The position numbers were made by a program, and so were the translations under genes. From a virus (lineage: Duplodnaviria > Heunggongvirae > Uroviricota > Caudoviricetes), in the IMG/VR virus record IMGVR_UViG_2711768073_000008: DNA of 15,620 nucleotides. The stretch is one strand, 5' to 3'. Shown here piece by piece: positions 1 through 15,620 of this stretch (the first letter of the stretch is position 1; the number at the start of each line of letters is the position of its first letter). Under the pieces are notes generated by a model. It saw only the letters and a program-made list of their open reading frames with translations. It was not told the origin of the DNA and did no database searches.

Positions 1-377
1 TTGCCGTCACTGCATAAACCATCGGGAGAGCAGGCGGTACGCATACTTTCGTCGCGATAGATGATCGGTGATTCAGTAACATTCACGCCGGAAGTGAACT
101 CAAACAGGGCTCTGGCGTCGTTCTCGTACTGTTTTCCCCAGGCCAGCGCTTTAGCGTTAACTTCCGGAGCCACACCGGTGCAAACCTCAGCAAGCAGGGT
201 GTGGAAGTAGGACATTTTCATGTCAGGCCACTTTTTTCCGGAGCGGGGTTTTGCTATTACGTTATGAACTTCTGAAGCTGTGATGACGCCGAGCCGTAAT
301 TTGTGCCACGCATCATCCCCCTGTTCGACAGCTCTCACGTCGATCCCGGTACGCTGCAGGATAATGTCCGGTGTCAT
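1..377 (-). CDS. exo: Lambda exonuclease (Red-alpha), N-terminal part; gene continues beyond the window's left edge
   Basis: Minus-strand translation from the ATG at 375-377 reads [37 protein letters not shown]..., matching lambda Exo as recalled. Start overlaps the bet stop (ATGA). Partial ORF, so absent from the ORF track. Confidence 0.85.
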
Positions 378-1159
378 GCTGCCACCTTCTGCTCTGCGGC
401 TTTCTGTTTCAGGAATCCAAGAGCTTTCACTGCTTCGGCCTGTGTCAGTTCTGACGATGCGCGAATGTCGCGGCGAAATATCTGGGAACAGAGCGGCAAT
501 AAGTCGTCATCCCATGTTTTATCCAGGGCGATCAGCAGAGTGTTAATCTCCTGCATGGTTTCATCGTTTACCGGAGTGATGTCGCGTTCCGGCTGGCGTT
601 CTGCAGTGTATGCGGTATTTTCGACAATGCGCTCGGCTTCATCCTTGTCATAGATACCAGCAAATCCGAAGGCCAGGCGGGCACACTGAATCATGGCTTT
701 ATGCCGTAACATCCGTTTGGGATGCGACTGCCACGGCCCCGTGATTTCCCTGCCTTCGCGAGTTTTGAATGGTTCGCGGCGGCATTCATCCATCCATTCG
801 GTAACGCAGATCGGATGATTACGGTCCTTGCGGTAAATACGGCATGTGCAGGATTCGTTGTCCTGTTCAAAGTCCATGCCATCAAACTGCTGGTTTTCAT
901 TGATGATGCGGGACCAGCCATCAACGCCCACTACCGGAACGATGCCATTCTGCTTATCAGGAAAGGCGTAAATTTCTTTCGTCCACGGATTAAGGCCGTA
1001 CTGGTTGGCAACGATCAGTAATGCGATGAACTGCGCATCGCTGGCATCACCTTTAAATGCCGTCTGGCGAAGAGTGGTGATCAGTTCCTGTGGGTCGACA
1101 GAATCCATGCCGACGCGTTCAGCCAGCTTCCCTGCCAGCGTTGCGAGTGCTGTACTCAT
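374..1159 (-). CDS. bet: Bet (Red-beta) single-strand annealing recombinase, 261 aa
   Basis: ORF track 261 aa, [66 protein letters not shown]..., recognised as lambda Bet. Gene order exo-bet-gam as in lambda. Confidence 0.95.
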
Positions 1160-1548
1160 CCGTTTTATACCTCTGAATCAATATCAACCTGGTGGTGAGC
1201 AATGGTTTCAACCATGTACCGGATGTGTTCTGCCATGCGCTCCTGAAACTCAACATCGTCATCAAACGCACGGGTAATGGCTTTTTTGCTGGCCCCGTGG
1301 CGTTGCAAATGATCGATGCATAGCGATTCAAACAGGTGCTGGGGCAGGCCTTTTTCCATGTCGTCTGCCAGTTCTGCCTCTTTCTCTTCACGGGCGATCT
1401 GCTGGTAGTGACGCGCCCAGCTCTGAGCCTCAAGACGATCCTGAATGTAATAAGCGTTCATGGCCGAACTCCTGAAATAGCTGTGAAAATATCGCCCGCG
1501 AAATGCCGGGCTGATTAGGAAAACAGGAAAGGAGGTTAGTGAATGCTT
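1020..1548. repeat. Direct repeat copy 1 (~525 bp): gam plus the first 46 codons of bet
   Basis: Manual comparison with 2204..2727 at a fixed offset of 1184 bp: only two substitutions over the first ~440 bp, then about eight differences including one 1-bp indel in the last ~90 bp. Confidence 0.9.
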
Positions 1549-1581
1549 TTGCTTGATCTCAGTTTCAGTATTAATATCCAT
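1165..1581 (-). CDS. gam: Gam, RecBCD inhibitor (138-aa long form; internal start at 1461 gives the 98-aa GamS)
   Basis: ORF track 138 aa, [71 protein letters not shown]..., recognised as lambda Gam. Confidence 0.9.
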
Positions 1582-1679
1582 TTTTTATAAGCGTCGACGG
1601 CCTCACGAAACATCTTTTCATCGCCAATAAAAGTGGCAATAGTGAATTTTGTCTGGATAGCCATAAGTTTTTTATCCAT
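1536..1679 (-). CDS. kil: Kil (host cell-division inhibitor), 47 aa
   Basis: Internal Met of the 89-aa track ORF gives [47 protein letters not shown], close to lambda Kil as recalled. GGAG Shine-Dalgarno upstream on the minus strand (plus 1688-1691 ctcc). Confidence 0.7.
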
Positions 1680-1812
1680 TTTTGGGGACTCCTGGCTGAT
1701 TAAGTATGTCGATAAGGCGTTTCCATCCGTCACGTAATTTACGGGTGATTCGTTCAAGTAAAGATTCGGAAGGGCAGCCAGCAACAGGCCACCCTGCAAT
1801 GGCATATTGCAT
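1672..1812 (-). CDS. cIII: CIII (FtsH/HflB inhibitor), 46-aa version
   Basis: Minus-strand translation from the ATG at 1810-1812 gives [46 protein letters not shown] then stop; AAGGAG SD upstream. Too short for the ORF track. Overlaps the kil start by 8 nt. Confidence 0.75.
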   Translation of the reverse strand: MQYAIAGWPVAGCPSESLLERITRKLRDGWKRLIDILNQPGVPKNG

Positions 1813-1835
1813 GGTGTGCTCCTTATTTATACATA

Positions 1836-1860
1836 ACGAAAAACGCCTCGAGTGAAGCGT
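1836..1860 (-). terminator. Possible intrinsic terminator (tL-type) between the chimeric ORF and cIII
   Basis: Plus strand acgcctcgagtgaagcgt (1843-1860) forms a ~7-bp stem with one G-U pair when read on the minus strand, followed there by a U-run (plus-strand A-run 1839-1843). Confidence 0.3.
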
Positions 1861-1884
1861 AATTGGTATGCGGTAACGCCGCGC

Positions 1885-2343
1885 TCAGGCGGCTTTGATA
1901 GTCATATCATCTGGATCAAATATTCCTGATGTATCGATATCGGTAATTCTTATTCCTTCGCTACCATCCATTGGAGGCCATCCTTCCTGACCATTTCCAT
2001 CATTCCAGTCGAACTCACACACAACACCATATGCATTTAAGTCGCTTGAAATTGCTATAAGCAGAGCATGTTGCGCCAGCATGATTAATACAGCATTTAA
2101 TACAGAGCCGTGTTTATTGAGTCGGTATTCAGAGTCTGACCAGAAATTATTAATCTGGTGAAGTTTTTCCTCTGTCATTACGTCATGGTCGATTTCAATT
2201 TCAAATGCGATGAACTGCGCATCGCTGGCATCACCTTTAAATGCCGTCTGGCGAAGAGTGGTGATCAGTTCCTGTGGGTCGACAGAATCCATGCCGACAC
2301 GTTCAGCCAGCTTCCCAGCCAGCGTTGCGAGTGCTGTACTCAT
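1885..2343 (-). CDS. Chimeric ORF: Bet N-terminal 46 aa fused in frame to 106 aa of an unrelated gene (sits in the position of ea10 upstream of cIII); possibly a rearrangement product or pseudogene
   Basis: ORF track 152 aa; first 46 aa identical to Bet (MSTALATL...DAQFIA), then FEIEIDHDVMTEEKLHQINNFWSDSEYRLNKHGSVLNAV... The junction coincides with the repeat boundary at 2204. An internal ATG at 2178 could start a 97-aa product instead. Confidence 0.5.
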   Translation of the reverse strand: MSTALATLAGKLAERVGMDSVDPQELITTLRQTAFKGDASDAQFIAFEIEIDHDVMTEEKLHQINNFWSDSEYRLNKHGSVLNAVLIMLAQHALLIAISSDLNAYGVVCEFDWNDGNGQEGWPPMDGSEGIRITDIDTSGIFDPDDMTIKAA

Positions 2344-2727
2344 CCGTTTTATACCTCTGAATCAATATCAACCTGGTGGTGAGCAATGGTTTCAACCATG
2401 TACCGGATGTGTTCTGCCATGCGCTCCTGAAACTCAACATCGTCATCAAACGCACGGGTAATGGCTTTTTTGCTGGCCCCGTGGCGTTGCAAATGATCGA
2501 TGCATAGCGATTCAAACAGGTGCTGGGGCAGGCCTTTTTCCATGTCGTCTGCCAGTTCTGCCTCTTTCTCTTCACGGGCGATCTGCTGGTAGTGACGCGC
2601 CCAGCTCTGAGCCTCAAGACGATCCTGAATGTAATAAGCGTTCATGGCTGAACTCCTGAAAATGGCTGTGAAAAAATCGCCCGCGGAATGCCAGGCTGAT
2701 TCGGAAAACAGGAAAGGGGATTAGTGA
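2204..2727. repeat. Direct repeat copy 2 (~525 bp): second gam plus bet 5' end, flanked by unrelated sequence
   Basis: Same alignment as copy 1. The left boundary falls exactly after bet codon 46; the right end degrades just past the GamS start region. Confidence 0.9.
2349..2645 (-). CDS. gam: Second copy of Gam, short form only (GamS, 98 aa)
   Basis: ORF track 98 aa, identical to residues 41-138 of the first Gam. AGGAG SD upstream; the long-form N-terminal extension is disrupted by substitutions and an indel in this copy. Confidence 0.8.
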
Positions 2728-2927
2728 TTCAGACCGTTGCCGCGTCCGTCGAGAAAAACTTCCACGAGCAAATCACGGGTATAAGTGCGCTCGATGCCGC
2801 GATGCAGATAAAGCCGTCCGCGTAAATTAGCTGATGCAGTCCAGGTACCATCTTTGTGTTTGACCAGCATTCCTGGCATGACCGCACCTCGATTAACGGT
2901 CTGCGTTCCGTAATGTTGATGAACCAT
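2721..2927 (-). CDS. Hypothetical 68-aa protein in the pL operon
   Basis: ORF track 68 aa (MVHQHYGTQTVNRGAVMPGMLVKHKDGTW...). Good SD (caggag, ~5 nt spacing) upstream on the minus strand; same orientation as the leftward operon. No family recognised. Confidence 0.45.
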   Translation of the reverse strand: MVHQHYGTQTVNRGAVMPGMLVKHKDGTWTASANLRGRLYLHRGIERTYTRDLLVEVFLDGRGNGLNH

Positions 2928-3219
2928 AAAAACTCCTGCCCGTAAGCTGGGCTGCTGAACAAATAAGGGGTTGCGCAGTATCTGGCGGTGGATGGCCGCC
3001 GGTTGTCATAACTAAGTCGCCTCGTTGAAGCGACTGAGGTATGAAGTGTTGAGTTGATTTCAGCTGGTCACACCGACGTTCACGCGTCCGCTTCACCCCT
3101 CGCACTCCCCGGAGCCTGCTGAAATTCAAGCTGCGGATCTAAGCGGTCATCGCAACGGTGAATCAGGTGATTGCCGTATCGTTGTGTTGTTGCGATGAAT
3201 TCATTTAAAACTATAGTTG

Positions 3220-3290
3220 TTTTATCATCAACAACAAAAGTTGTTTTGTTGGTTGTTTTAGATATAACTGGTTGTATTTAGGATGGATTT
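3220..3290 (-). promoter_or_regulatory. Putative OL/pL operator-promoter region
   Basis: TGGTTGT at 3250-3256 and 3269-3275 plus a degenerate ACAACAA near 3230, the same half-site seen between the repressor and cro genes. AT-rich non-coding DNA at the position expected for pL. Confidence 0.35.
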
Positions 3291-3368
3291 ATTTTGTGAC
3301 TTGCATCGCATAGCGATAACCGAAGCGGGGTTGTGGTGGTTTTTTGAACGGTGTGTGATGAGGGGAGG

Positions 3369-3396
3369 CAAAAGAAAACCCGGCACGACGGCCGGG
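3369..3396 (-). terminator. Intrinsic terminator downstream of the 287-aa cargo gene
   Basis: Perfect 6-bp GC stem cccggc (3379-3384) / gccggg (3391-3396) with a 6-nt loop; on the minus strand it is followed by a U-rich tract (plus-strand caaaagaaaa 3369-3378). Lies 4 nt past the ORF stop. Confidence 0.6.
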
Positions 3397-3400
3397 GAAA

Positions 3401-4264
3401 TCATTTCGCATCTACAATAAATAACCTGTTTATCTGGCCTTTTTTAACAGTAGCCTTTGCGGTTATAGTGAATACTGCAGATGGATCACCTTTGGTTGAT
3501 ATATATGCACTAAGAGCTCTAATATACGGGTTATTCTTCTTTCCTGCAGCTGGATCGCTAATTTCAGCAGTGATTCTCTTTTTTGAGTCATCACCATCTA
3601 AAATTATTTTAGCTGTCATATTTTGTGCATCAAATTCTGTAAGAAAAGCACGATACTCACGAAGACCGAGAACTTCATCATCATCAAGCCTATCAATTTC
3701 AGCTTTATCTCTCTCGTTAACTTTTAGAAGGCAGCCGTCAACATTTGTTGCAACACTTATCTGATCGCAAGTATTACCAATAGGTGATACTGCCTGCCTT
3801 ACAGAGGGGCGAAGCTCTACAGCCATTCGGTCAATCAAAGAGATCAACTTATCAATGGTTCCAGCATCCTTGTTTCCTAGTGCCTCTATGGCCTTTTCAA
3901 GTGACTGCTGCAAAGCTTTCATTTCATCTTTCTTGTTAGAATTTCTCGCAAAAATATATTGTAGTATTGCGCCAAGTATAGTTGCGGCGATCCCCGAGAA
4001 CAACTGGTTCTGAGTGGCGAAGTTAAGAACTGCTTCAAGAGTAAAGCAGTTAGCTTTTGCTTCGCGTGCGTAAACCTTAACTTCCTGATAATTAATGTAT
4101 TTACTATATTTTTGTGTAACAGAGAAAGAAGCTGCTGTTGAGAGAACTTTAGAAAAACCCTTTAGGGATTCTCCTAGGCAGTTCAAATCTATTTCATGAT
4201 TTAAAGCATCTTTTCCGTCATACCTAAGAGAGATTTTTATATCCTGTAAAGCGTCACAATCCAT
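3401..4264 (-). CDS. Uncharacterised 287-aa protein, AT-rich cargo gene in the position lambda uses for rexAB
   Basis: ORF track 287 aa with no recognisable family or catalytic motif. Central hydrophobic stretch [20 protein letters not shown]. Co-directional with and directly downstream of the repressor gene; ends in its own terminator. Confidence 0.75.
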
Positions 4265-4330
4265 AAATCGCTCTCGTCTAATTCTAATTAAATTTACTAT
4301 CCCCTAAACGACTCATCAGCACAGTACTGA

Positions 4331-5020
4331 TTATCCATGTTTCCTGTACGTCTGGGGCATGCTCCCAATAACCTTACCGAAGATGAACACCCGGTTCATC
4401 TCGTCTTTCTCGATCGGGTCCCACGGTGAGTAGCTCTTGTTATCAGAGATAACCAGCAGCTTATCCTTCATCATTTGCAGGCGCTTTACATGGGCGGTGT
4501 CGTCGTACAGAAACGCATAGATGCCATCACCGTCGAAAGATTTAACCGTGATATCAACGAACAGCAGATCACCTGGTTCGATCGTTCCTGACATGCTGTC
4601 ACCACGCACGTTAATGATGCGGATATTTTCTGCCTTCCTACCATCGAACATGTGACGAGCATCGTCAAACGAGTACTCAACCGAGCGTAGAACTTCTACA
4701 AACTCACGGTTGATGACTCCCGGCCCGGCACTCACTTCTATATCAAGAACGTCAATCTTAAAGTATTTGGAATGGCTGACAGTTGATTGTATTGGTTGCA
4801 CTGTACTGTCTGACATATTTCCAACGCCAGAAGATAACCATTCTGCGCGCACACCCAAAGCGTTCGCGATCTCCACGATTTTAGTTGTTTGGTTAGCTTT
4901 CCCTGTTTCGATTTTCTGAATAGCAGCTTGGCTAACCCCGACCAAATCCCCAAGCGCCTTTTGTGTAAGGCCTCGCGCTAATCTGGCTTCTTTAAGTCTT
5001 TCTGAGAGTGTTGTTTTCAT
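4331..5020 (-). CDS. CI-like prophage repressor (N-terminal HTH, C-terminal S24 LexA-like autopeptidase), 229 aa from the ATG at 5018-5020
   Basis: MKTTLSERLKEARLARGLTQKALGDLVGVSQAAIQKIETGKANQ (HTH); candidate Ala-Gly cleavage site in EVSAGPG; GDSM serine and AHVKRL lysine motifs. The track ORF (to 5086) has a 22-aa N-terminal extension that is probably not translated; no SD precedes the ATG, so the transcript may be leaderless. Confidence 0.85.
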   Translation of the reverse strand: MKTTLSERLKEARLARGLTQKALGDLVGVSQAAIQKIETGKANQTTKIVEIANALGVRAEWLSSGVGNMSDSTVQPIQSTVSHSKYFKIDVLDIEVSAGPGVINREFVEVLRSVEYSFDDARHMFDGRKAENIRIINVRGDSMSGTIEPGDLLFVDITVKSFDGDGIYAFLYDDTAHVKRLQMMKDKLLVISDNKSYSPWDPIEKDEMNRVFIFGKVIGSMPQTYRKHG

Positions 5021-5124
5021 AGTCCAAATGTACAACCAAGGTTTTATTTCATCAAACGAAAATGGTTGTTGGCTAAAAACAACCATAGTTTTAATCTTGA
5101 TTCAAATTAACCACGGAGGTTGTT
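5021..5124. promoter_or_regulatory. OR-type operator/divergent promoter region between repressor and cro-like genes
   Basis: Repeated half-sites: ACAACCA 5032-5038, TGGTTGT 5063-5069, ACAACCAT 5079-5086, GGTTGTT 5116-5122. Contains a perfect 9-7-9 palindrome atggttgtt-ggctaaa-aacaaccat (5062-5086). Confidence 0.6.
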
Positions 5125-5355
5125 ATGAACCCAGCTATCAAAACAGCGATCAATATCGTTGGTTCACAAAAGAAACTGGGCGCTGCCTGCGAAGTTTCAC
5201 AGCAGGCCGTCTATAAGTGGCTTCACAACAAAGCAAAGGTATCCCCTGAACATGTCGGCAGCATTGTTACGGCTACTGGTGGAATAGTGAAGGCATACCA
5301 GATTCGCCCGGATCTTCCGAAGTTGTTTCCACATACCGAAAAGAACGCAGCTTAA
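5125..5355 (+). CDS. Cro-like HTH regulator (76 aa)
   Basis: ORF track 76 aa, MNPAIKTAINIVGSQKKLGAACEVSQQAVYKWLH (HTH). GGAGG SD 6 nt upstream; divergent from the repressor. Confidence 0.8.
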   Translation: MNPAIKTAINIVGSQKKLGAACEVSQQAVYKWLHNKAKVSPEHVGSIVTATGGIVKAYQIRPDLPKLFPHTEKNAA

Positions 5356-5367
5356 ATTTCCATTTCA

Positions 5368-5380
5368 CGCTCTTTAACAA
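5368..5380 (+). promoter_or_regulatory. boxA-like element (CGCTCTTTAACAA), possible nutR component
   Basis: Matches the rrn/nut boxA consensus GCTCTTTAACAA, located just downstream of cro where lambdoid nutR lies. No convincing boxB hairpin follows. Confidence 0.4.
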
Positions 5381-5424
5381 TAAGCAATCAACTTAGCAGT
5401 CAATTCAAACTAAAGGAGTCAATT

Positions 5425-5964
5425 ATGCAACAACTTACATACCAACAGACTAGCGGATTTAGCCCGACTGCGGTGATAAATCGTTCTCAAACAAAACAGG
5501 TGCCAGGCCACGAAAAAATCCGTGATGCCGTCCGCGCCTGGTCGGCTGAAGATAATCAGGATGTCGTTGCCACACTCATTGTGAATGAGTATCGGGAGCA
5601 GGGCGGCGGCACCATCGATTTCCCTGATGATGTCAGCCGTGCACGCCAGAAGCTGTTCCGCTTCCTCGATAACAAATTCGATTCTGAAAAATACCGAAAT
5701 AACGTGCGTGAACTGACCCCGGCAATTCTGGCGGTACTACCGCTGGAATATCGCGGCCACCTGGTTGAGCAGGATAGCTACATGGCTCGGCTGGCTGAAA
5801 TGGAAAAGGAACTCAGTGAGGCAAAACAGGCTGTCATTCTCAACGCACCACGCCACCAGAAACTGAAGGAGATGAGTGAAGGCATTGTGTCGATGTTTCG
5901 TGTGGACCCGGATCTGGCTGGTCCACTGATGGCGATGGTCACCACCATGCTGGGGGCAATATGA
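5425..5964 (+). CDS. YdaT-like / phage CII(CP76)-like regulatory protein (179 aa)
   Basis: ORF track 179 aa. Motifs NEYREQGGGTIDFP and ELTPAILAVLPLEYRGH resemble Rac-prophage YdaT as recalled. Position immediately downstream of cro; good SD (aaggag). Confidence 0.6.
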   Translation: MQQLTYQQTSGFSPTAVINRSQTKQVPGHEKIRDAVRAWSAEDNQDVVATLIVNEYREQGGGTIDFPDDVSRARQKLFRFLDNKFDSEKYRNNVRELTPAILAVLPLEYRGHLVEQDSYMARLAEMEKELSEAKQAVILNAPRHQKLKEMSEGIVSMFRVDPDLAGPLMAMVTTMLGAI

Positions 5965-6041
5965 CAGGTTCAGAAATGGCGAAAGCCGGTCTGCGCGAAC
6001 AGAACCGACTTTCAGGTGCAACACTCATTGCGGGAGGAATT

Positions 6042-6971
6042 ATGGCAAACACTGCTGAGATATTCAATTTTCCAGTGCCGGATGTGGCACAAAAGGAGCC
6101 GCGCGTGGCAGATCTCGATGATGGTTATACGCGCATTGCAAATGAGTTGCTGGAAGCTGTAATGCTGGCCGGATTAACACAGCACCAGCTTCTGGTCTTC
6201 CTGGCTGTCATGCGTAAAACATATGGCTTTAATAAAAAACTGGATTGGGTGAGCAACGAGCAACTTTCCGAGTTGACCGGGATATTGCCGCACAAGTGTT
6301 CTGCTGCAAAAAGTGTTCTGGTAAAGCGTGGGATTTTTATTCAGAGCGGGCGGAATACCGGCATTAATAATGTGATCAGTGAATGGTTAACATTACCCGA
6401 ATCAGGTAAGAAAAATAAAGTTTACCTGAAAGAGGTAAATTTACCTGAATCAGGTAAGAAAATTTTACCCAAATCAGGTAAAGACGTTTACCCGAATCAG
6501 GTAAATACAAAAGACAAACTAACAAAAGACAATATAAAACCTTTTTCGTCCGAGAATTCTGTCGAATCCTCTGACCAGCCAGAAAACGATCTTCCTGTGG
6601 TGAAACCGGATGCTGCAATTCAGAGCGGCAGCAAGTGGGGGACAGCAGAAGACCTGACCGCCGCAGAGTGGATGTTTGACATGGTGAAGACCATTGCGCC
6701 ATCAGCCAGAAAACCGAATTTTGCAGGGTGGGCTAACGATATCCGCCTGATGCGTGAACGTGACGGACGTAACCACCGCGACATGTGTGTACTGTTCCGC
6801 TGGGCATGCCAGGACAACTTCTGGTCCGGTAACGTGCTGAGTCCGGCCAAACTCCGCGACAAGTGGACCCAGCTCGAAATCAACCGTAACAAGCAACAGG
6901 CAGGCATGATAGCCAGCAAACCAAAACTCGACCTGACAAACACTGACTGGATTTACGGGGTGGATTTATGA
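6042..6971 (+). CDS. O: Replication initiator O (mosaic: divergent N-terminal origin-binding half, lambda-like C-terminus), ~309 aa from the ATG at 6042
   Basis: MANTAEIFNFPVPDVAQKEPRVADLDDGYTRIANELLEAV parallels lambda O (...ERNVADLDDGYARLSNMLLEA...); C-terminal ...DNFWSGNVLSPAKLRDKWTQLEINRNKQQ... is lambda-like. GGGAGG SD at 6032-6037. The track's upstream start (5961) would overlap the preceding gene. Confidence 0.85.
   Translation: MANTAEIFNFPVPDVAQKEPRVADLDDGYTRIANELLEAVMLAGLTQHQLLVFLAVMRKTYGFNKKLDWVSNEQLSELTGILPHKCSAAKSVLVKRGIFIQSGRNTGINNVISEWLTLPESGKKNKVYLKEVNLPESGKKILPKSGKDVYPNQVNTKDKLTKDNIKPFSSENSVESSDQPENDLPVVKPDAAIQSGSKWGTAEDLTAAEWMFDMVKTIAPSARKPNFAGWANDIRLMRERDGRNHRDMCVLFRWACQDNFWSGNVLSPAKLRDKWTQLEINRNKQQAGMIASKPKLDLTNTDWIYGVDL
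6392..6505. repeat. Replication origin iterons inside O (five ~18-bp TTACC-N-AATCAGGTAA repeats, one degenerate), followed by an A/T-rich tract to ~6550
   Basis: ttacccgaatcaggtaag (6393-6410), ttacctgaaagaggtaaa (6422-6439, degenerate), ttacctgaatcaggtaag (6441-6458), ttacccaaatcaggtaaag (6466-6484), ttacccgaatcaggtaaa (6488-6505). Each is an internal inverted repeat. The layout mirrors ori-lambda inside O. Confidence 0.75.
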
Positions 6972-7669
6972 AAAACATCGCCGCACAGATGGTTAACTTT
7001 GACCGTGAGCAGATGCGTCGGATCGCCAACAACATGCCGGAACAGTACGACGAAAAGCCGCAGGTACAGCAGGTAGCGCAGATCATCAACGGTGTGTTCA
7101 GCCAGTTACTGGCAACTTTCCCGGCGAGCCTGGCTAACCGTGACCAGAATGAACTGAACGAAATCCGCCGCCAGTGGGTTCTGGCTTTTCGGGAAAATGG
7201 GATCACCACGATGGAACAGGTTAACGCTGGAATGCGCGTAGCCCGTCGGCAGAATCGACCATTCCTGCCATCACCCGGGCAGTTTGTTGCCTGGTGCCGT
7301 GAAGAAGCATCCGTTATTGCCGGACTGCCAAACGCCAGCGAGCTGGTTGATATGGTTTACGAGTATTGCCGGAAGCGTGGACTGTATCCGGATGCAGAGT
7401 CTTATCCGTGGAAATCAAACGCGCACTACTGGCTGGTTACCAACCTGTACCAGAACATGCGGGCCAATGCGCTGACTGACGCGGAATTACGGCGTAAGGC
7501 TGCCGATGAGCTGACCTGTATGACCGCGCGAATTAACCGTGGTGAGGCGATACCTGAACCAGTAAAACAACTTCCTGTCATGGGCGGTAGACCTCTAAAT
7601 CGTGCACAGGCTTTGGCGAAGATCGCAGAAATCAAAGCTAAGTTCGGACTGAAAGGAGCAAGTGTATGA
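6968..7669 (+). CDS. P: Replication protein P (DnaB helicase loader), 233 aa
   Basis: ORF track 233 aa, MKNIAAQMVNFDREQMRRIANNMPEQYDEKPQVQQVAQIINGVFSQLL..., recognised as near-identical to lambda P. Start overlaps the O stop (ATGA). Confidence 0.95.
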   Translation: MKNIAAQMVNFDREQMRRIANNMPEQYDEKPQVQQVAQIINGVFSQLLATFPASLANRDQNELNEIRRQWVLAFRENGITTMEQVNAGMRVARRQNRPFLPSPGQFVAWCREEASVIAGLPNASELVDMVYEYCRKRGLYPDAESYPWKSNAHYWLVTNLYQNMRANALTDAELRRKAADELTCMTARINRGEAIPEPVKQLPVMGGRPLNRAQALAKIAEIKAKFGLKGASV

Positions 7670-7968
7670 CGGGCAAAGAGGCAATTATTCATTACCTGGG
7701 GACGCATAAGAGCTTCTGTGCGCAGGACGTTGCTGCGGTAACAGGCGCAACAGTAACCAGTATAAATCAGGCTGCGGTTAAAATGGCACGGGCAGGAATC
7801 TTAGTCATTGATGGTAAGGTCTGGCGAACGGTGTATTACCGCTTCGCTACCAGGGAAGAACGGGAAGGAAAGGTGAGCACGAATCTGATTTTCAAGGAGT
7901 GTCGCCAGAGTGCCGCGATGAAACGAGTGTTGGCAGTGTATGGAGATATGAACTTAAACTTGCTGTGA
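7666..7968 (+). CDS. ren: Ren (Rex-exclusion resistance protein), 100 aa
   Basis: ORF track MTGKEAIIHYLGTHKSFCAQDVAAVTGATVTSINQAAVKMARAGILVIDGKVWRTVYYRFATREEREGK..., matching lambda Ren as recalled. Overlaps the P stop. Confidence 0.9.
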   Translation: MTGKEAIIHYLGTHKSFCAQDVAAVTGATVTSINQAAVKMARAGILVIDGKVWRTVYYRFATREEREGKVSTNLIFKECRQSAAMKRVLAVYGDMNLNLL

Positions 7969-8216
7969 CGGTTTTCATCGGTAACACACCATGTAATCTA
8001 GCAGTCAGCTTAGAAATAGGAGCGGCAGTTAAAGATTTTTCAGTTAGTAGAAAATTACTGTTATTGCAGGGATCTAATCACCGGAGAGTCGTTCCATTTG
8101 TCTTATGATTACCTGATGTCCGTTAGTTCGTTGGTAATCACCGTTTTTGTTAGAGAAGTAAGCATCGCTGACAAAATATTCTCAACGATGCCTGCTTTAT
8201 TGCCACTACAAATTAA

Positions 8217-9719
8217 TTAAATTGCATCTGCAAACTCTGGGGTTTTTCGCTCAGGTATAATTGATGAGTTGTTGTTGTCACTTTTTTTATTTTCATGATT
8301 ACGAATAGCCAATGACTCATTAAAGTCTTTTGCGACTGCTGTCTCAATAAATTCAATTTCTGAATCAGAGTGTTTTTTAAGAGCTTCTTTGATCTCATCC
8401 AGAGTAACATAGAAAAACTCTTTTCTACGATTTACAAGATTGACTCTCTTTTTATCGAAGACATCATGTAGTTTTTTTTCTAATGATGGAGCGTCCTCCG
8501 AATAAATCATAGCATGCACATCAAAAATAAATGGAACAGATGCATCACCGAGCTCATTTACACGGTCTTGCGGATCAAGACGTCGTGTCATGCCTATTTT
8601 ATAAACATTCTCCCCAAAAGAACCTATGTTCGAAATAATATAAACATGACCTTGTTTGGTTTGTTGTGCCATGGATAATGCTCTTTGATGCTTTGATTCA
8701 GCCTGCGACAAACTCTGTTCTAGTTCGGCAATGCGATTTTCGAGGCGCTGCTTCATGTCACCAGTAACTTTTTCCATTTCCTTTCTTGCAGCTTCAATTG
8801 CTTTTTTATAACGGCGCTCTTCTGCCTCTGCGTCTTGCATGGCCTTTTCTATTTCTCGTTGTGCACGCTCCTCCTCTCTCATTTGTGCCCTTATTTCTGC
8901 CTGTTCTTCTTTTTCTTTCTGTTTTTGCTCACGATATTCATGGGTAAGCCACAATTCCTCAAGTTTTTTATTGAGGTATTTAGTGTTTATATATATGTGA
9001 TTTTGCTCGTTTAGTTTATTTATGGCCTCAAATGCCTTTGTGATGCGTTCTTCCATTTTAGTGATATTTTTCCACGTGCAATTGCTAATTGCAGCATCAC
9101 ATTCATTATTAAATGCTCTAGTAGTTAACCTGATATTTCTGTCTGTCATTTTTTTACCCTCTGCTCGAGAGCCTTCAACAGTCCATTGGGTTGTACAATA
9201 TACTGCGCCAGAGTGGGTTTTATCCCGCAGCATTAATTTCTGTTCATCCCTGATGGATTTTATTTTGTTTTTAAATTGCTCTGAATCTTCAAAATTAAAA
9301 TGAGGTTCGTAAAATCCTAGCTCGGCTAGCTCAACATCTTCTGAATAAATAGAAATTTGCCTTACTAGTTTATCATATATTTCTTTCTTCTCTTTATAAG
9401 TTCTTCTTAGCTCTTGGATTTGTTTATTGATACCATCCATTTTTTCAATGGTGTTTGTTAGTTCATTATTGGCATTTTCTTTTACTTTTTGGGATTCTTC
9501 TTTTATTATGGAGCATTCTTGCTCTGTTTTCTCAATAAGCTTCTTACATTCTTCTTCTACATTAAAATAATCTGCAAAGCGAGATTTGTATTCTTCATTT
9601 TTTTGATTGCTATCACTTAATTCTAATTGTATTTTTTTGATGCGTTTGATTGCAGCTATATAAAGAACAAGAACAACCAATAAAAATATGATTGCAAGTA
9701 ATAGTGGAGTTTGAGTCAT
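8217..9719 (-). CDS. 500-aa cargo protein: N-terminal TM anchor, long coiled coil, C-terminal GIY-YIG/T5orf172 (MUG113)-like domain; candidate anti-phage defence or abortive-infection effector
   Basis: ORF track 500 aa. N-terminus MTQTPLLLAIIFLLVVLVLYIAAIKRIKK is hydrophobic; an E/K/Q/R-rich heptad-like region runs to ~aa 350; the C-terminal GHVYIISNIGSFGENVYKIGMTRRLDPQDRVNELGDASVPFIFDVHA...NRRKEFFYVTLDEIKEAL fits the GIY...YIG/T5orf172 pattern (encoded ~8380-8651). AT-rich, opposite strand to flanking ren and ybcN; SD aagga 8 nt before the ATG. Confidence 0.85.
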   Translation of the reverse strand: MTQTPLLLAIIFLLVVLVLYIAAIKRIKKIQLELSDSNQKNEEYKSRFADYFNVEEECKKLIEKTEQECSIIKEESQKVKENANNELTNTIEKMDGINKQIQELRRTYKEKKEIYDKLVRQISIYSEDVELAELGFYEPHFNFEDSEQFKNKIKSIRDEQKLMLRDKTHSGAVYCTTQWTVEGSRAEGKKMTDRNIRLTTRAFNNECDAAISNCTWKNITKMEERITKAFEAINKLNEQNHIYINTKYLNKKLEELWLTHEYREQKQKEKEEQAEIRAQMREEERAQREIEKAMQDAEAEERRYKKAIEAARKEMEKVTGDMKQRLENRIAELEQSLSQAESKHQRALSMAQQTKQGHVYIISNIGSFGENVYKIGMTRRLDPQDRVNELGDASVPFIFDVHAMIYSEDAPSLEKKLHDVFDKKRVNLVNRRKEFFYVTLDEIKEALKKHSDSEIEFIETAVAKDFNESLAIRNHENKKSDNNNSSIIPERKTPEFADAI

Positions 9720-9899
9720 TCGTGCTATTCCTTACGGACAATTTAAGACGTTTTTATTAAATCCTGTTCAATGTGTATGCGGGTGATTGCCACCGCTTAC
9801 AATCTTCATAATTATCAGTTAGATAGACTCTCTAGTAAATAATTTCATTTTTTGCAATATTCTTGTTTAATATTTCAATTTATGAAATGAACTCTTTAT

Positions 9900-9925
9900 C
9901 CTTTCAAGGCGAAAGGTTTTTTCTT
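9900..9925 (+). terminator. Weak terminator-like hairpin upstream of ybcN (tR2 position)
   Basis: cctttc (9900-9905) / gaaagg (9911-9916) stem with 5-nt loop followed by tttttt (9917-9922). The stem is short and AT-rich, so this is tentative. Confidence 0.3.
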
Positions 9926-10144
9926 CGGAAATATTTGCTCTCGTGTGACGTATAAAGACCTTTGATTTTCAAAAATCAGTAGGGAATAATATAGTTACTG
10001 TCGGCCTGAACACCCGGTGGTGGGGTTGCGCTAAACGGGGACGTTTATGCGCACATACAATCCAAACTCTCTTCTCCCTTCACAGATGCAGAAATGCACC
10101 TGCAATTCTTTGCATCTAGCGTTTGACCTCTGCGGAGGTGAAGC

Positions 10145-10600
10145 GTGAACCTCCCACAAGACGGTATCAAATTGCATCGCGGTAACTTCACCGCTATCGG
10201 TCAGCAGATCCAGCCTTATCTGGAGGACGGAAAATGCTTTCGCATGGTGCTTAAACCGTGGCGCGAGAGACGCAGTCTTTCCCAGAATGCACTCAGCCAC
10301 ATGTGGTACAGCGAAATCAGTGAATACCTCATCAGCAGGGGTAAAACGTTCGCCACTCCAGCTTGGGTAAAAGATGCTCTCAAACACACATATCTCGGTT
10401 ATGAAACCAAAGACCTGGTTGATGTCGTAACCGGTGATATCACCACTATCCAGTCGTTACGCCATACCTCCGATCTTGATACCGGAGAGATGTATGTCTT
10501 CCTGTGTAAGGTTGAAGCCTGGGCGGTGAATATTGGCTGCCACCTGACTATTCCGCAGAGCTGCGAGTTCCAGCTGCTCCGCGACAAGCAGGAGGCGTAA
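10145..10600 (+). CDS. ybcN: NinB-family protein (DLP12 YbcN-like), 151 aa, GTG start
   Basis: ORF track 151 aa. [20 protein letters not shown] parallels the lambda NinB RSLDQN motif; recalled as near-identical to E. coli DLP12 YbcN. GGAGG SD at 10134-10138. Confidence 0.7.
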
Positions 10601-10770
10601 TGGCTACACCGCTTATTCGTGTCATGAACGGACACATCTACAGAGTATCAAATCGTCGTAAGCGTAAGCCTGAGCTGAAGCCATCCGAAATACCAACACT
10701 GCTCGGATATACCGCTAGCCTGGTTGATAAAAAATGGTTGCGACTGGCAGCAAGGAGGAATCATGGCTGA
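10600..10770 (+). CDS. ninE: NinE-like small protein (56 aa)
   Basis: Manual translation from the ATG at 10600: [56 protein letters not shown] then stop. Start overlaps the ybcN stop (TAATG). Below the ORF-track size cut-off. Confidence 0.55.
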   Translation: MATPLIRVMNGHIYRVSNRRKRKPELKPSEIPTLLGYTASLVDKKWLRLAARRNHG

Positions 10771-11053
10771 TTTGAGAAAAGCAGCGCGTGGTCGGGAATG
10801 CCAGGTAAGAATCCCTGGCGTATGTAATGGCAATTCTGAAACGTCTGTACTGGCACATATCCGGCTGGCTGGATTGTGCGGTACCGGTATCAAACCGCCA
10901 GACCTGATTGCCACCATTGCATGTTCTGCCTGCCACGACGAAATCGACCGCCGCACACATTTTGTCGATGCTGCATATGCAAAAGAATGCGCGCTGGAAG
11001 GTATGGCGAGAACACAGGTTATCTGGCTGAAAGAGGGGGTTATTAAGGCGTGA
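10763..11053 (+). CDS. ybcO: YbcO-like protein (DUF1364, Cys-rich putative nuclease), 96 aa
   Basis: From the internal Met of the track ORF: [64 protein letters not shown]..., matching DLP12 YbcO as recalled. AAGGAGG SD upstream. Confidence 0.8.
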
Positions 11054-11412
11054 ATACCTACAGTATCACATTACCCTGGCCTCCGAGCAATAATCGCTAT
11101 TACCGCCATAATCGCGGGCGCACGCACGTCAGTGCAGAGGGGCAGGCATACCGCGATAACGTCGCCCGAATCATTAAAAACGCAATGCTGGATATCGGCC
11201 TGGCTATGCCTGTGAAAATCCGCATTGAGTGCCACATGCCGGATCGCCGTCGCCGTGACCTGGATAATCTGCAAAAAGCCGCTTTTGACGCACTCACCAA
11301 AGCAGGTTTCTGGCTGGATGATGCTCAGGTCGTTGATTACCGCGTTGTGAAGATGCCTGTTACCAAAGGTGGGAGGCTGGAACTGACCATCACCGAAATG
11401 GGGAATGAATGA
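11050..11412 (+). CDS. rusA: RusA Holliday-junction resolvase, 120 aa
   Basis: ORF track 120 aa, [46 protein letters not shown]...[25 protein letters not shown], recognised as RusA. Confidence 0.9.
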
Positions 11413-11549
11413 TGTTTGAGTTTTATATGGCAGAACTTCTTCGCCACCGCTGGGGGCATCTGCGCTTATATCGTTTCCCCGGTTCTGTTTTGACCGATTA
11501 CCGAATACTGAAGAATTACGCCAAAACCCTGACAGGAGCAGGAGTATGA
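11409..11549 (+). CDS. ylcG: YlcG-like small protein (46 aa)
   Basis: Manual translation [46 protein letters not shown] then stop; overlaps the rusA stop. Matches DLP12 ylcG as recalled. Confidence 0.6.
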
Positions 11550-11634
11550 AGTCAGAGATAACAATCAACTAATACTGTTTTGTTGATTTTTGCTTGTAAT
11601 TGGCGTTCTGGTCTGATTTTTGTGGAGTAAGTTG

Positions 11635-12018
11635 ATGCGTGATATTCAGATGGTTCTTGAGCGTTGGGGAGCGTGGGCGGCTAATAATCATGAAGATGTG
11701 ACCTGGTCGTCCATTGCCGCCGGTTTTAAGGGATTAATTACTTCAAAAGTAAAATCTCGCCCGCAATGTTGTGACGATGACGCGATGATTATTTGCGGGT
11801 GCATGGCCCGTCTGAAAAAGAACAACAGCGATTTGCACGATTTATTAGTAGATTATTATGTAGTCGGTATGACATTCATGTCACTGGCAGGTAAGCATTG
11901 CTGCTCTGATGGTTATATCGGGAAAAGGTTACAGAAGGCTGAGGGCATAATTGAAGGGATGTTAATGGCATTAGATATCCGGTTAGAGATGGATATCGTT
12001 GTTAATAACTCTAATTAA
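11635..12018 (+). CDS. quuD: Q-family late-gene antiterminator (DLP12 QuuD-like), 127 aa from the ATG at 11635
   Basis: [60 protein letters not shown]... GGAG SD 8 nt upstream. The track ORF begins at an upstream TTG. Confidence 0.8.
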
Positions 12019-12051
12019 TATGCCAATTGTTTACTAAAAATTATTAAAAAT

Positions 12052-12187
12052 GGGGCGTTGCAACGCCCCCAAAAATAAAGGGTAATATATAACAGAAGGT
12101 TTATATAGTTAGAAGCAAGGTTGTGCTCCTAAAGGAAGTGGCTTGAGGGAGCCACTTATATGTTGGGGAGGCAAAGCCTCCCGCAAC
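12052..12187. promoter_or_regulatory. Cluster of three GC-rich hairpins between quuD and the porin gene (candidate terminators and/or late-promoter/qut-associated structure)
   Basis: Perfect palindrome ggggcgttgcaacgcccc (12052-12069), flanked by a T-run on the minus strand; gtggct-tgaggg-agccac (~12139-12156); tgttggggaggc-aaa-gcctcccgcaaca (~12160-12187), 20 nt from the porin stop. Confidence 0.4.
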
Positions 12188-12206
12188 ATATCTTTTAGTA
12201 ATCAAA

Positions 12207-13289
12207 TTAGAACTGGTAAACCATACCTACAGCAACGATATCATCGGTAGCAACGCCAGATGCTTTCGTGAAATCGCTCTTATCAATCAGGTTGATTTTG
12301 TAATCAACAAAAGTGGACATATTTTTGTTGAAGTAATAGGTTGCACCTACATCAATATATTCAACCAGGTCCTGATCACCCCACGCACCCAAGTCTTTTC
12401 CTTTAGATTGCAGGTAAGCAACGGACGGACGCAGACCGAAGTCGAACTGATATTGTGCAACTACTTCGAAGTTTTGTGCTTTGTTGGCAATATGGTTATT
12501 ACCAAAAACAGTCATGTTCTGGGTTTCAGAATAGGTGGTAGCCAGATAGATGTTGTTCGCATCATATTTCAGACCAGCTGCCCATACTTCAGCATTTTGA
12601 CCAGATGCATTCAGGCTGTTGTTACCGTAGATAACCTGATTATTAGTGCGGTCAGATTTAGCATAGGTTGCACCTACACCGAATCCTTCATACTCATAAG
12701 TAGTGGAGAAACCGAAACCATCACCATTAGCTTCAGTTACGTCAGTGCGGTCATTTTTACCCTGATACTGAGCAGCAAAGTTCAGACCATCAACCAGACC
12801 AAAGAAGTCGTTGTTACGATAAGTTGCAACACCAGTGGTGCGACCAGTCATGAACACATCTGTTTGGGTCCAGGTATCGCCACCGAATTCTGGCAGAACG
12901 TCAGTCCACGCACCGATGTCATATGCTACACCGTAGTTACGGCCGTAATCGATTGAGCCGTAGTCCCCGAATTTCAGGCCTGCAAATGCAAGACGGGTTT
13001 TGTCTTTGGAGGAGCCTTGAGATTCAGCGCGGTTGCCTTTGAATTCATATTCCCACTGACCGAAACCAGTCAGTTGATCGTTGATTTGGGTTTCACCTTT
13101 GAAGCCAAGACGGGCATAAGTAGTATCACCATCATCTGCATCATTAGAGGAGAAGTAGTGCTTGGCATTAACTTTCCCATATAGATCCAGCTTGTTACTG
13201 TCTTTATTATAAATTTCAGCTGCCTGAGCAGACATCGCCATCAGTACTGATGCAGCTACAGCAGAAATTGCCACTGTTAATTTTTTCAT
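12207..13289 (-). CDS. nmpC: Outer-membrane general porin, OmpC/OmpF/PhoE family (NmpC/Lc-like), 360 aa, intact
   Basis: ORF track 360 aa; signal peptide [29 protein letters not shown]; porin hallmarks (GxxYxF-rich beta strands, C-terminal ...VAVGMVYQF). Sits between Q and the lysis genes as in DLP12; no IS interruption visible. Confidence 0.9.
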
Positions 13290-13717
13290 CGTGAGCCCTT
13301 TTTTTTGAACTATTATTAAAAAATGATGTCACTGCGCGATAAATATTCATCTAATCAATGTGATTATTTCAAGATGTAAGTTTTGGTTTCTCGTTTGATT
13401 TGTGAAGTAGATCTCTATTTTTATCTGAACTTTTTTCTATCGAATCCTATTCATGGATCTTGGCTGAATAAAAATAAATCTATTAGCCAATTTATATTAA
13501 CGGCTGTTATTTATAAGTGCTCTGTAATTTGAAGGTTCAATTTAAATCGGCTAAAAATAACACTGGAAATTATTTGTTGGTTATTTGTTGAGATTTGCTT
13601 ATGTATTTGTAGTGGTGTTTTCAATACTCGGTAGCATTCTCGCAAATATCATTTTGTGGTTTACGTACGTAAAAAATTGGTTATGCTGTTAAGAGTGGTT
13701 ACTTCGTCACACAGCTT

Positions 13718-13750
13718 AAACCCGCCGTCGAGCGGGTTTTTCCATTTTTT
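13718..13750 (+). terminator. Intrinsic terminator upstream of the holin gene (tR'-like)
   Basis: aaacccgc-cgtcga-gcgggttt stem-loop (13718-13739) followed by T-rich ttttccatttttt, about 130 nt upstream of the essD start. Confidence 0.55.
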
Positions 13751-13878
13751 GAGTCTCGATATTAGCTGATAACCCAATACCTGAGTTATTCACTGACTCC
13801 GAGTCTGTTACGTTTCTGCTTTTTTGCGATACGTTGTATTCCCTCAATTTACACCCGCTTTGTCTGCGAGGTGGGGTT

Positions 13879-14094
13879 ATGAAATCCATGGATAAGTTAA
13901 CAACGGGTGTCGCCTATGGCACCTCAGCAGGTAGTGCCGGTTACTGGTTTTTACAGCTGCTCGATAAAGTCACGCCCTCACAGTGGGCAGCAATAGGTGT
14001 GCTGGGTAGCCTGGTATTTGGCCTGCTGACGTACCTGACAAACCTTTATTTCAAGATTAAAGAAGATAAGCGCAAGGCTGCGAGAGGTGAATAA
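13879..14094 (+). CDS. essD: Holin (lambda S / DLP12 EssD-like), 71 aa with dual-start motif
   Basis: [71 protein letters not shown]; Met1 and Met4 (ATGs at 13879 and 13888) form a holin/antiholin dual start; GAGGTGGGG SD. The track ORF starts further upstream. Confidence 0.85.
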
Positions 14095-14591
14095 TGCCTC
14101 CATCATTACGAAAAGCCGTTGCTGCTGCTATTGGTGGCGGAGCAATTGCTATAGCATCAGTGTTAATCACTGGCCCAAGTGGTAACGATGGTCTGGAAGG
14201 TGTCAGCTACATACCATACAAAGATATTGTTGGTGTATGGACTGTATGTCACGGGCATACAGGAAAAGACATCATGCTCGGTAAAACGTATACCAAAGCA
14301 GAATGCAAAGCCCTCCTGAATAAAGACCTTGCCACGGTCGCCAGACAAATTAACCCGTACATCAAAGTCGATATACCGGAAACAATGCGCGGCGCTCTTT
14401 ACTCATTCGTTTACAACGTGGGTGCTGGCAATTTCAGAACATCGACGCTTCTTCGCAAAATAAACCAGGGCGATATCAAAGGCGCATGTGATCAGCTACG
14501 TCGCTGGACATATGCTGGCGGTAAGCAATGGAAAGGTCTCATGACTCGTCGTGAGATTGAGCGTGAAATCTGTTTGTGGGGTCAGCAATGA
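14094..14591 (+). CDS. rrrD: SAR endolysin (phage lysozyme, P21 R / DLP12 RrrD-like), 165 aa
   Basis: ORF track 165 aa. N-terminal signal-anchor-release segment [20 protein letters not shown] followed by a lysozyme-like domain. Start overlaps the holin stop (TAATG). Confidence 0.9.
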
Positions 14592-15049: not shown

Positions 15050-15080
15050 AGCTGCCCATATCGATGGGCAACTCATGCAA

Positions 15081-15374: not shown

Positions 15375-15620
15375 CTTATTATCCTGCATTGTTAAAAACG
15401 GCAGAATCCTATGTGACAACAATTAAACGATAGTTAAATGGATTGATGAAAATTAAAACTATATAGGTGGATGCTCAGCCTATTGGAGGAGGGGGGGCAC
15501 TCAGAATCCTGTGGAATGAAATAAACCGCTCTATCTGTCCATTACCCTTTTAGCTGCGCTGTATCGTCGCCGTATTCCCGCATTAACCATGACCGTAGCC
15601 CGACGGGGAATTCCTTCTGC

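Follow-up and report, generated by a model that had tools for sequence, protein, structure and literature searches.

The origin of lambdoid mosaic genomes is debated, with random illegitimate joining on one side and recombinase-driven exchange at weak homology on the other (PMC2327257, PMC3945230). In the Hendrix-type model, discussed in the same two papers, mosaic joints result from illegitimate recombination between lambdoid phages. Relaxed, or homeologous, recombination is attributed to Red-beta/Rad52-like recombinases (Martinsohn 2008, PMC2327257; De Paepe 2014, PMC3945230). In addition, two studies on multi-lysogens describe recombination between prophages that yields chimeric phages and prophage-mediated inversions, and the integration of one prophage into another (PMC2669165, PMC8112680). 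Nearly all of the evidence on mosaicism consists of old joints, the parents and by-products of which are gone.

Here, we analyzed a 15,620-nt stretch of phage DNA (the window, always taken at its full length) that contains sequence of two lambdoid types, A and B (Table 1). Comparison with related prophages, which an earlier note on this DNA had proposed as a check, found that both single-copy arrangements exist independently: the A-type order (exo-bet-gam-kil-cIII-ea10) in 1,371 genomes and the B-type gam/kilR boundary in 2,160 genomes. A kilR-family gene is the native upstream neighbor of gam in B-type prophages, and PF27398 (KilR) is assigned at the identical gene position in four of them (L005, L007, L009, and L012). 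We put a probability of roughly 0.78 on a single illegitimate recombination having joined an A-type and a B-type lambdoid genome out of register, as judged from sequence comparison.

Table 1. Coordinates, strand, and basis of the features discussed in the window
Feature	Position	Strand	Description	Basis
Direct repeat, copy 1	1020..1542	.	A-type context	Repeat search, pairwise alignment
Direct repeat, copy 2	2204..2727	.	B-type context	Repeat search, pairwise alignment
A-type arm	1..2202	-	exo 3' part, bet, gam, kil, cIII, DUF2528/ea10 3' 105 codons	Lambda-like pL operon
Full-length bet	374..1159	-	261 aa, identical to lambda-type Bet	ORF list; Pfam RecT
gam, copy 1	1165..1581	-	GamL frame of 138 aa; 98-aa Gam from ATG at 1461	ORF list, Pfam
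Terminator-like hairpin upstream of gamS, copy 1	1494..1511	-
kil	1536..1679	-	47 aa	Pfam Lambda_Kil; coordinates from CD45 annotation
cIII	1672..1812	-	46-aa allele	Pfam Lambda_CIII
cIII 5' thermoregulator RNA	1767-1825			Rfam RF01804, 88.5 bits
Predicted chimeric ORF	1885..2343	-	152 aa: Bet 1-46, hybrid Phe codon, DUF2528 (Ea10-family) residues 18-122
Single A/B joint, probably illegitimate	2202..2205	.	A parent matches to 2202, B parent from 2204
B-type arm	2204..15620	.	bet', gam, kilR, DUF7946/7947 gene, cI-like repressor, ydaS/ydaT-type cro region; further genes: O, P, ren, PD-Lambda-1, nin region, Q, porin, lysis genes
gam, copy 2	2349..2645	-	98 aa, without GamL frame, as native to B type	ORF list, Pfam
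Terminator-like hairpin upstream of gamS, copy 2	2679..2696	-
kilR-family cell-division inhibitor gene	2721..2927	-	68 aa	RefSeq name

The direct repeat and the parentage of its flanks

The earlier note had described a direct duplication of gam and the 5' end of bet. Repeat search and pairwise alignment bear this out: the window contains a 524-bp direct repeat, the copies of which are ~98% identical, offset by 1184/1185 bp, and separated by a 661-bp spacer (1543-2203). Both copies contain the 98-aa Gam together with codons 1-46 of bet (1022-1159 in copy 1 and 2206-2343 in copy 2), and a 1-nt indel near 1474/2659 splits the repeat into two gapless families. There are three differences in the first ~445 bp (1115/2299, 1133/2317, and 1465/2649), and further differences cluster in the final ~70 bp, which are ~90% identical. 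The claim that divergence concentrates at the right end of the repeat therefore stands. Its companion, that GamL was disrupted in copy 2, does not, since this is the native B-type arrangement, and the right edge of the repeat is the native boundary where A/B homology ends, as in the 2,160 genomes above. The cluster is the pre-existing edge of that homology and does not stem from damage during the event.

The left arm (1-2202) is ~99.7% identical to A-type prophages: over 2202 bp, it differs at six positions from L013 (GCA_019089265.1) and at seven from CD45 prophage A (L002), and the unique spacer (1543-2202) shows no difference from the A type (100% identity). Across the B-type loci examined, identity falls to 96.4-97.1%, with a value of 97.3% for CD45 prophage B over 1-1542 (B type: 41 mismatches in 1543 bp). 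Among informative sites in 1-1019, 31 are A-specific versus 3 that are B-specific. The A-type signature covers the entire visible left arm, and the left end of the window falls inside exo. The exact Bet protein of this arm, whose RecT domain (PF03837) spans residues 24-183, is in 14,583 collection blocks, among them A-type and B-type loci useful for comparison. The right arm (2204-15620) matches prophage B of E. coli CD45 with 2 mismatches and 0 gaps in 13,417 bp (99.985%), and the CD45 match is shorter than the window by exactly 1184 bp. CD45 and PS1Thumoskin9 each carry both parental types, inverted relative to one another; in these nearest relatives, the two prophages lie ~2 Mb apart.

These assignments bear on whether the repeat arose by duplication. 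The earlier note had favored a recombination scar between two lambdoid genomes over a simple tandem duplication, and the two arms, which are of different lineages and meet without homology, agree with it. We reject the simple form: kil precedes copy 1, kilR precedes copy 2, and the arms differ in lineage. An elaborated form, in which unequal exchange within one phage created the duplication and kilR then replaced kil-cIII, would explain the general appearance of the locus, that of a segment duplicated with a new head-to-tail joint. However, it requires at least two extra events, it has to accommodate a near-exact match of copy 2 and all rightward sequence to an existing B type next to a left arm of another lineage, and copy 2 ends on the right at the native gam/kilR boundary. 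We regard it as very improbable.

A patch insertion has more in its favor. A broken B-type bet might have been repaired by copying 1184 bp (bet'-gam-kil-cIII-'ea10) from a co-resident A prophage, with one end resolved homologously and the other by end-joining. The size excess over CD45 prophage B is exactly that length, and heteroduplex repair might leave B-like alleles in an A-like arm, such as those at 749-761 and 1133-1192. Nevertheless, 31/34 informative sites in 1-1019 are of A type, and B-type loci reach at most about 97.1-97.3% identity in the left arm. Because the A signature extends throughout this arm, the homologous end of a patch would have to lie >1 kb away, outside the window. 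We hold a patch insertion to be quite unlikely.

Out-of-register joining, our preferred reading, is itself not a perfectly clean single exchange, because B alleles occur in the A arm and copy 2 has the A allele at 2317. Four of the six left-arm differences from the best relatives (749, 761, 1133, and 1192) carry the B-type allele, and divergence from the best relatives in the database is ~20 times greater for the A arm than for the B arm, which was compared with CD45. The T1133/G1192 combination is common among 5,426 genomes; G1115 of copy 1 is matched by none of the 5,426 (best identity 99.6%, one mismatch). Gene conversion between the copies, a slightly different A donor, or mis-polishing of the repeat must be added to the exchange.

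The joint at 2203/2204

The switch of parentage coincides with 2203/2204. Base 2203 is an A, where both closest parents have a C, and microhomology at the joint amounts to ≤2 nt (2203-2204). When the parents are compared in the register of the joint, 24 of 100 positions are identical to its left and 17 of 100 to its right, that is, at the random level. As read in the assembled sequence, the sole novel joint lies where copy 2 begins on the left. The alternative offered by the earlier note, an illegitimate insertion, fits poorly with this, as one illegitimate joint was found and not two novel ends.

Searches for the joint elsewhere were negative. A 171-nt junction query found it covered in 0 of 5,426 complete E. 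coli genomes, exact 27-35-mers across it had 0 matches in viral, genome, and metagenome contigs, and an exact look-up of the fusion protein in protein collections returned no match. A homolog search over 5.8 billion clusters found no protein that covers >72% of the fusion. Given this absence from genomes, protein collections, and contig scans, the joint, and with it the hybrid, looks recent and private.

We asked whether such a joint could be an assembly artefact, i.e., prophages A and B are separate in the source, and a chimeric read or a mis-join made both the joint and the duplication. The closest relatives do hold both parents in one chromosome, the joint is in no other assembly searched, and the 1133/2317 swap, like the occurrence of B alleles within the A arm, could reflect mis-polishing of 98%-identical repeats. 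On the other hand, repeat-induced mis-joins occur in register within the shared bet-gam segment, whereas this joint lies outside the homology, with ≤2 nt shared. Without homology at the joint, overlap or k-mer assembly cannot produce it unless a chimeric molecule supports it. Moreover, the 13.4-kb gap-free alignment to CD45 indicates a high-quality consensus, and real one-off illegitimate fusions in the same operon are known from other public data. We consider an artefact unlikely.

Predicted products at the scar

The 152-aa in-frame chimera with Bet 1-46, predicted by the earlier note, is present, and its partner can now be identified as DUF2528 of the lambda Ea10 family. The PF10800 profile scores 155.7 bits against the fusion (Pfam gathering cut-off 22), with profile positions 3-104 of 104 on fusion residues 48-149. 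Hence, the predicted protein keeps nearly the whole DUF2528 domain (102/104 positions). The ORF also retains bet's own ribosome-binding site and start codon. The RecT/Bet profile (PF03837) gave no match to the 152-aa fusion, in which 46 Bet residues are present, and PADLOC returned 0 defence-family matches for the fusion protein and kilR.

Both Gam copies match PF06064 over its full length (1-98/98; 216.8 and 215.2 bits) and have identical protein sequences; the 98-aa Gam of copy 1 is encoded at 1165-1461. In copy 2, the kilR-family gene upstream supplies the stop codon that closes the GamL frame. Terminator-like hairpins precede gamS in both copies, and lambda has tL3 at the position of the copy 1 hairpin. 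It is reasonable to predict that a second gamS copy would increase RecBCD inhibition. A putative activity of the fusion protein in its own right is a more remote possibility.

One could imagine that an advantage came from having two gamS genes, from the Bet(1-46)::Ea10 fusion, or from kilR standing together with kil and cIII, and that selection kept the structure. The intact state of both Gam copies and an in-frame fusion that retains 102/104 profile positions and the bet translation start are in line with this. Yet an in-frame joint has a one-in-three chance, and 46 residues of Bet are not enough for the RecT domain to score. Nothing points to spread or retention of the structure, as the genomes and metagenomes searched contain no second example of it. 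We view selected innovation as extremely improbable and infer that the event was recent and selectively neutral.

Proposed origin and relation to known mosaics

In the out-of-register joining that we propose, the A-type genome (exo-bet-gam-kil-cIII-ea10-ral-N...) would have broken inside the ea10/DUF2528 gene at codon 17/18 and the B-type genome (exo-bet-gam-kilR-...) inside bet at codon 46/47, and the breaks would have been joined with a 1184-bp offset. As bet-gam is near-identical in both phages and the breaks are offset by this length, the hybrid would contain bet'(1-46)-gam twice. The 524-bp repeat would then flank kil, cIII, and the ea10 remnant, and a joint that fell in frame by chance (one in three) would have placed a Bet(1-46)::Ea10-like fusion under the bet translation signals. 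From the B-type pL promoter, the operon would read kilR, gam, bet'::'ea10, cIII, kil, gam, bet, exo. The setting may have been a phage-by-phage cross, an inversion between co-resident inverted prophages, or a circular A genome that inserted into prophage B; the local sequence predicted is the same in each case. The lambda pL-operon genes except N are all dispensable for plaque formation (PMC10695390), so the rearrangement would be tolerated.

RecA- or Red-mediated deletion between the 524-bp copies probably occurs readily. Its product, with A-type sequence on the left and B-type sequence on the right, would look the same as the result of an ordinary homologous crossover. It is conceivable, though unlikely, that the window captures a fresh intermediate of lambdoid mosaic formation, with the out-of-register joint and the duplication still in place. 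Deletion between the repeats would then yield a seamless module swap in which kilR replaces kil-cIII-ea10, and the allele swaps at 1133/2317 and 1192 would be conversion tracts of an ongoing resolution. If so, some mosaic boundaries that resemble homologous crossovers may have begun as illegitimate events. The source strain, if available, would be a convenient substrate for measuring the rate of scar erasure. Practical consequences would be strain-specific (an extra Gam copy and the fusion protein), and if the hybrid arose by inversion, the prophage may be unable to excise.

How does out-of-register joining at this locus compare with known routes? First, recombination in multi-lysogens resembles it in that two related co-resident lambdoid prophages are the likely partners here. 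Chimeras and inversions in those studies reportedly arise by homologous exchange or site-specific integration, whereas the joint in the window is non-homologous and creates a duplication. Second, other one-off in-frame fusions exist in public E. coli data (DUF2528::Bet C-terminus, P0014; DUF2528::Gam, P0028; and Bet1-55::integrase, P0099), which likewise join genes of the exo-bet-gam-kil-cIII-ea10 block. Those are read as deletions within one prophage, i.e., decay, whereas the window joint brings together two phage types and adds sequence. Third, exchange by Red-beta/Rad52-like recombinases also acts on related temperate phage genomes, and the present site adjoins the Red genes, but that route needs diverged, recognizable homology ('shoulders'). 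We reject homeologous (Red/RecT-type) exchange here: shoulders are missing from the flanks, which at 17-24% identity are at the random level.

The closest likeness is to Hendrix-type mosaics. As in those, lambdoid genomes appear to have been joined without homology or a special border signal and with gene order kept, and the site lies within the pL operon, which is dispensable. The hybrid provides a clean example of a known process, with no new gene, system, or mechanism, and documents the illegitimate route well in a single case. Known joints were inferred from old, trimmed mosaics; here, by contrast, the parents can be identified near base-exactly (99.7-99.985%), and the by-product, a 1184-bp duplication with its fusion ORF, is still present.

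Structure of the direct repeat

A repeat search of the window returned two families free of gaps and equal in offset, one at 1020-1319/2204-2503 (99% identity), the other at 1475-1542/2660-2727 (90% identity), and pairwise alignment placed both within one direct repeat of 524 bp (copy 1, 1020-1542; copy 2, 2204-2727) with a single 1-nt indel. The copies show just three differences across their first ~445 bp, the remainder being clustered in the final ~70 bp. All genes of the region, from bet through the 68-aa gene, are carried on the minus strand (see table), and the Gam domain is full-length in both gam copies. A terminator-like hairpin upstream of gamS, at the lambda tL3 position, is present twice (1494-1511 and 2679-2696), and the cIII thermoregulator RNA at 1767-1825 is intact (Rfam, 88.5 bits). 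Within the 152-aa ORF, Pfam recognized DUF2528, the family of lambda Ea10 (profile 3-104 of 104, residues 48-149), but not the RecT signal of intact Bet. The repeat search, alignment, ORF list, Pfam and Rfam bear out the coordinates and description of the duplication given in the earlier note.

Genes of the repeat region
Feature	Coordinates	Strand	Evidence and remarks
bet	374-1159	-	ORF list; RecT by Pfam
gam copy 1	1165-1581	-	138-aa GamL frame; 98-aa form from 1461; full-length Gam by Pfam
kil	1536-1679	-	Lambda_Kil by Pfam
cIII	1672-1812	-	Lambda_CIII by Pfam
152-aa ORF (Bet::DUF2528 fusion)	1885-2343	-	ORF list; DUF2528 by Pfam
gam copy 2, 98 aa	2349-2645	-	ORF list; full-length Gam by Pfam
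68-aa gene (kilR)	2721-2927	-	ORF list

Parentage of the two arms and the joint between them

Two types of lambdoid prophage are relevant here: A-type (exo-bet-gam-kil-cIII-ea10) and B-type (bet-gam-kilR). In a whole-window search, E. coli CD45 prophage B, which lies at a tRNA-Arg site in the order int ... exo-bet-gam-kilR-DUF7946 gene-cI ..., matched the window over 96% of its length with 99.7% identity; the match spans 14,436 bp against 15,620 bp, exactly 1184 bp shorter. Prophage A of the same strain, a second lambdoid prophage, adjoins mdtA and has the order exo-bet-gam-kil-cIII-DUF2528-ral .... Window positions 1-2202 differ from prophage A at 7 sites, positions 1-1542 differ from prophage B at 41, and positions 2204-15620 differ from prophage B at only 2 of 13,417 bp, without gaps. 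At informative sites left of the repeat (1-1019), the window has the A allele at 31 and the B allele at 3. Closer still than prophage A is the A-type prophage L013 (GCA_019089265.1), likewise adjoining an mdtA-like gene, with 6 mismatches over 2202 bp and an identical 660-bp spacer; left-arm identity was at most 97.1% for every B-type locus sampled. On these sequence comparisons (mismatch counts, allele tally, L013 and the B-type loci), the window is a hybrid of an A-type left arm and a B-type remainder, with parentage changing exactly at 2203/2204. This supports and sharpens the main reading of the earlier note, a recombination scar between two lambdoid genomes. A simple tandem duplication is ruled out by the differing flanks and lineages of the two copies.

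On its left side, copy 2 begins at a novel joint: a 171-nt query across it had no match of at least 80% coverage among 5,426 complete E. coli genomes, and matches ended at the joint from both sides (DUF2528 up to 2207, bet from 2204). On its right side, copy 2 has no joint; it stops at the native gam-kilR boundary (2620-2900), which 2,160 genomes contain in full, CD45 and PS1Thumoskin9 with 100% identity. Likewise, copy 1 ends at the native A-type gam-kil boundary, found in 1,371 genomes. The clustering of divergence at the right end of the repeat, seen earlier, holds, but these differences, in the final 70 bp, mark a pre-existing limit of A/B homology and are not damage from the event. GamL, too, was not disrupted in copy 2; its frame is missing there because it is closed by the kilR stop codon, native to B-type prophages.

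At the joint (slash), the A parent reads ...GATTTCAATTTC/CATTGATG, the B parent ...GATCAAC/AATGCGATG and the window ...GATTTCAATTTCAAATGCGATG. A-derived bases end at 2202 and B-derived bases start at 2204, base 2203 being A in the window and C in both closest parents. On one reading, CA was a dinucleotide common to both parents, and a substitution of A for C followed at the joint; on the other, the A donor carried the Ile17 allele that occurs in strain VCSW7 (...TTTCAATTG), leaving 1 nt of microhomology. Compared in joint register, the parents are identical at 24/100 positions to the left and 17/100 to the right, the random level, so homeologous shoulders are absent from the flanking 100 nt per side. 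The joint falls within a single codon, TTT on the coding strand, and the fusion product is Bet 1-46, Phe and DUF2528 residues 18-122.

The exact fusion protein was absent from an index of 153 billion gene positions, no protein among 5.8 billion protein clusters covered more than 72% of it, and the joint was not found in viral, genome or metagenome contigs. The uniqueness of the joint agrees with a recent and private event as well as with an assembly artefact. We consider an artefact improbable: repeat mis-joins occur in register, within shared sequence, whereas the present joint falls outside all homologous sequence and, as an artefact, would require a chimeric molecule; the other 13.4 kb are gap-free against CD45, a sign of high-quality consensus; and further E. 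coli assemblies in public data show one-off illegitimate fusions in the same operon (DUF2528::Gam, Bet1-55::integrase and, on 15 contigs, DUF2528::Bet C-terminus).

Divergence between the A arm and its best relatives is ~20-fold that between the B arm and CD45. Among the six differences between the window and L013, four (749, 761, 1133 and 1192) are the B allele, and the other two, at 1115 and 1533, are peculiar to the window. Parental alleles are swapped between the copies at 1133/2317; T1133 together with G1192 is frequent in the population, but G1115 had no match among the 5,426 complete genomes. Short tracts of conversion between homologous copies in the same host, an A donor that differed slightly, or mis-polishing of the repeat could each account for these odd alleles; none of the three affects the main conclusion.

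Neighboring genes and cargo

One-off in-frame fusions within the exo-bet-gam-kil-cIII-ea10 block occur among the public E. coli proteins P0003, P0014, P0016, P0028 and P0099; in P0003, a foreign N-terminus replaces DUF2528 at nearly the same residue (Ile17) as in the window. Among these fusions is one of an unknown N-terminus with DUF2528 and the Kil C-terminus. The window cIII is the 46-aa allele (RefSeq WP_001198858.1 type), other A-type loci having a 54-aa form. It may find no cII partner in the hybrid, because the immunity region ahead of it has genes of ydaS/ydaT type and lacks cII.

In the B-type arm, a 500-aa DUF4041 + T5orf172/MUG113 protein is encoded between ren and the nin region (8217-9719, minus strand). 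It matches PADLOC models of PD-Lambda-1 anti-phage defence near end to end (656 bits); its counterpart in the related phage PhiR26_1 is annotated PD-lambda-1, and some RefSeq records name this type 'SNIPE associated domain-containing protein'. Directly downstream of the cI-like repressor, in the lambda rexA/rexB position, lies a gene for a 287-aa DUF7946 + DUF7947 protein (3401-4264, minus strand), followed by a terminator-like hairpin (3379-3396). This slot looks like a variable position for lysogen-expressed cargo, possibly defence-related, because other B-type prophages hold different genes there (a SIR2_2 protein, or unannotated 340+168-aa or 313-aa proteins); the PADLOC match of the window protein is weak (PDC-S42, E = 1.5e-4). 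Between kilR and the DUF7946 gene, in the early-left region, ~470 bp (2927-3401) have no annotated gene, and the CD45 annotation shows no gene for an N-type antiterminator anywhere in the pL region of the B type. The late region carries ordinary lambdoid cargo, an OmpC-family porin gene (12207-13289) and an iss/bor-type serum-survival lipoprotein gene (15081-15422), both on the minus strand and named from the near-identical CD45 prophage.

Proposed origin and relation to known processes

The simplest account is that an A-type and a B-type genome underwent a single illegitimate exchange, with breakpoints in ea10/DUF2528 on the former and in bet on the latter. Because both genomes share bet-gam and the breakpoints are offset by 1184 bp, the product carries bet'-gam twice. 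Three settings would yield the same local sequence, and the window cannot tell them apart: two vegetative phage genomes might have crossed to give a hybrid phage, co-resident prophages might have undergone an inversion (in CD45 and PS1Thumoskin9, the two prophages are inverted and ~2 Mb apart), or a circular A genome might have inserted into prophage B. With copies 524 bp long and 98% identical, the repeat is expected to undergo RecA- and Red-dependent deletion often enough to be measured; deletion would leave exo-bet-gam-kilR with an A-type left arm, resembling an ordinary homologous crossover. The B-type pL transcript would run kilR, gam, bet'::'ea10, cIII, kil, gam, bet, exo. The consequences suggested for the additional gamS and for the fusion protein are speculative. 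The rearrangement should be tolerated, because all pL genes of lambda other than N are dispensable for plaque formation (PMC10695390).

For lambdoid mosaicism, an illegitimate-recombination model has been contrasted with homeologous, Red-dependent exchange (PMC2327257, PMC3945230). The joint in the window fits the former and lacks the shoulders that define the latter. Prophage-prophage interactions in multi-lysogens depend on homologous or site-specific recombination. The event described here is related to such interactions (PMC2669165, PMC8112680). The kind of event is already known, the particular joint and fusion are new to databases, and the window, of modest interest, probably preserves a tidy, datable illegitimate mosaic joint with its by-product intact.
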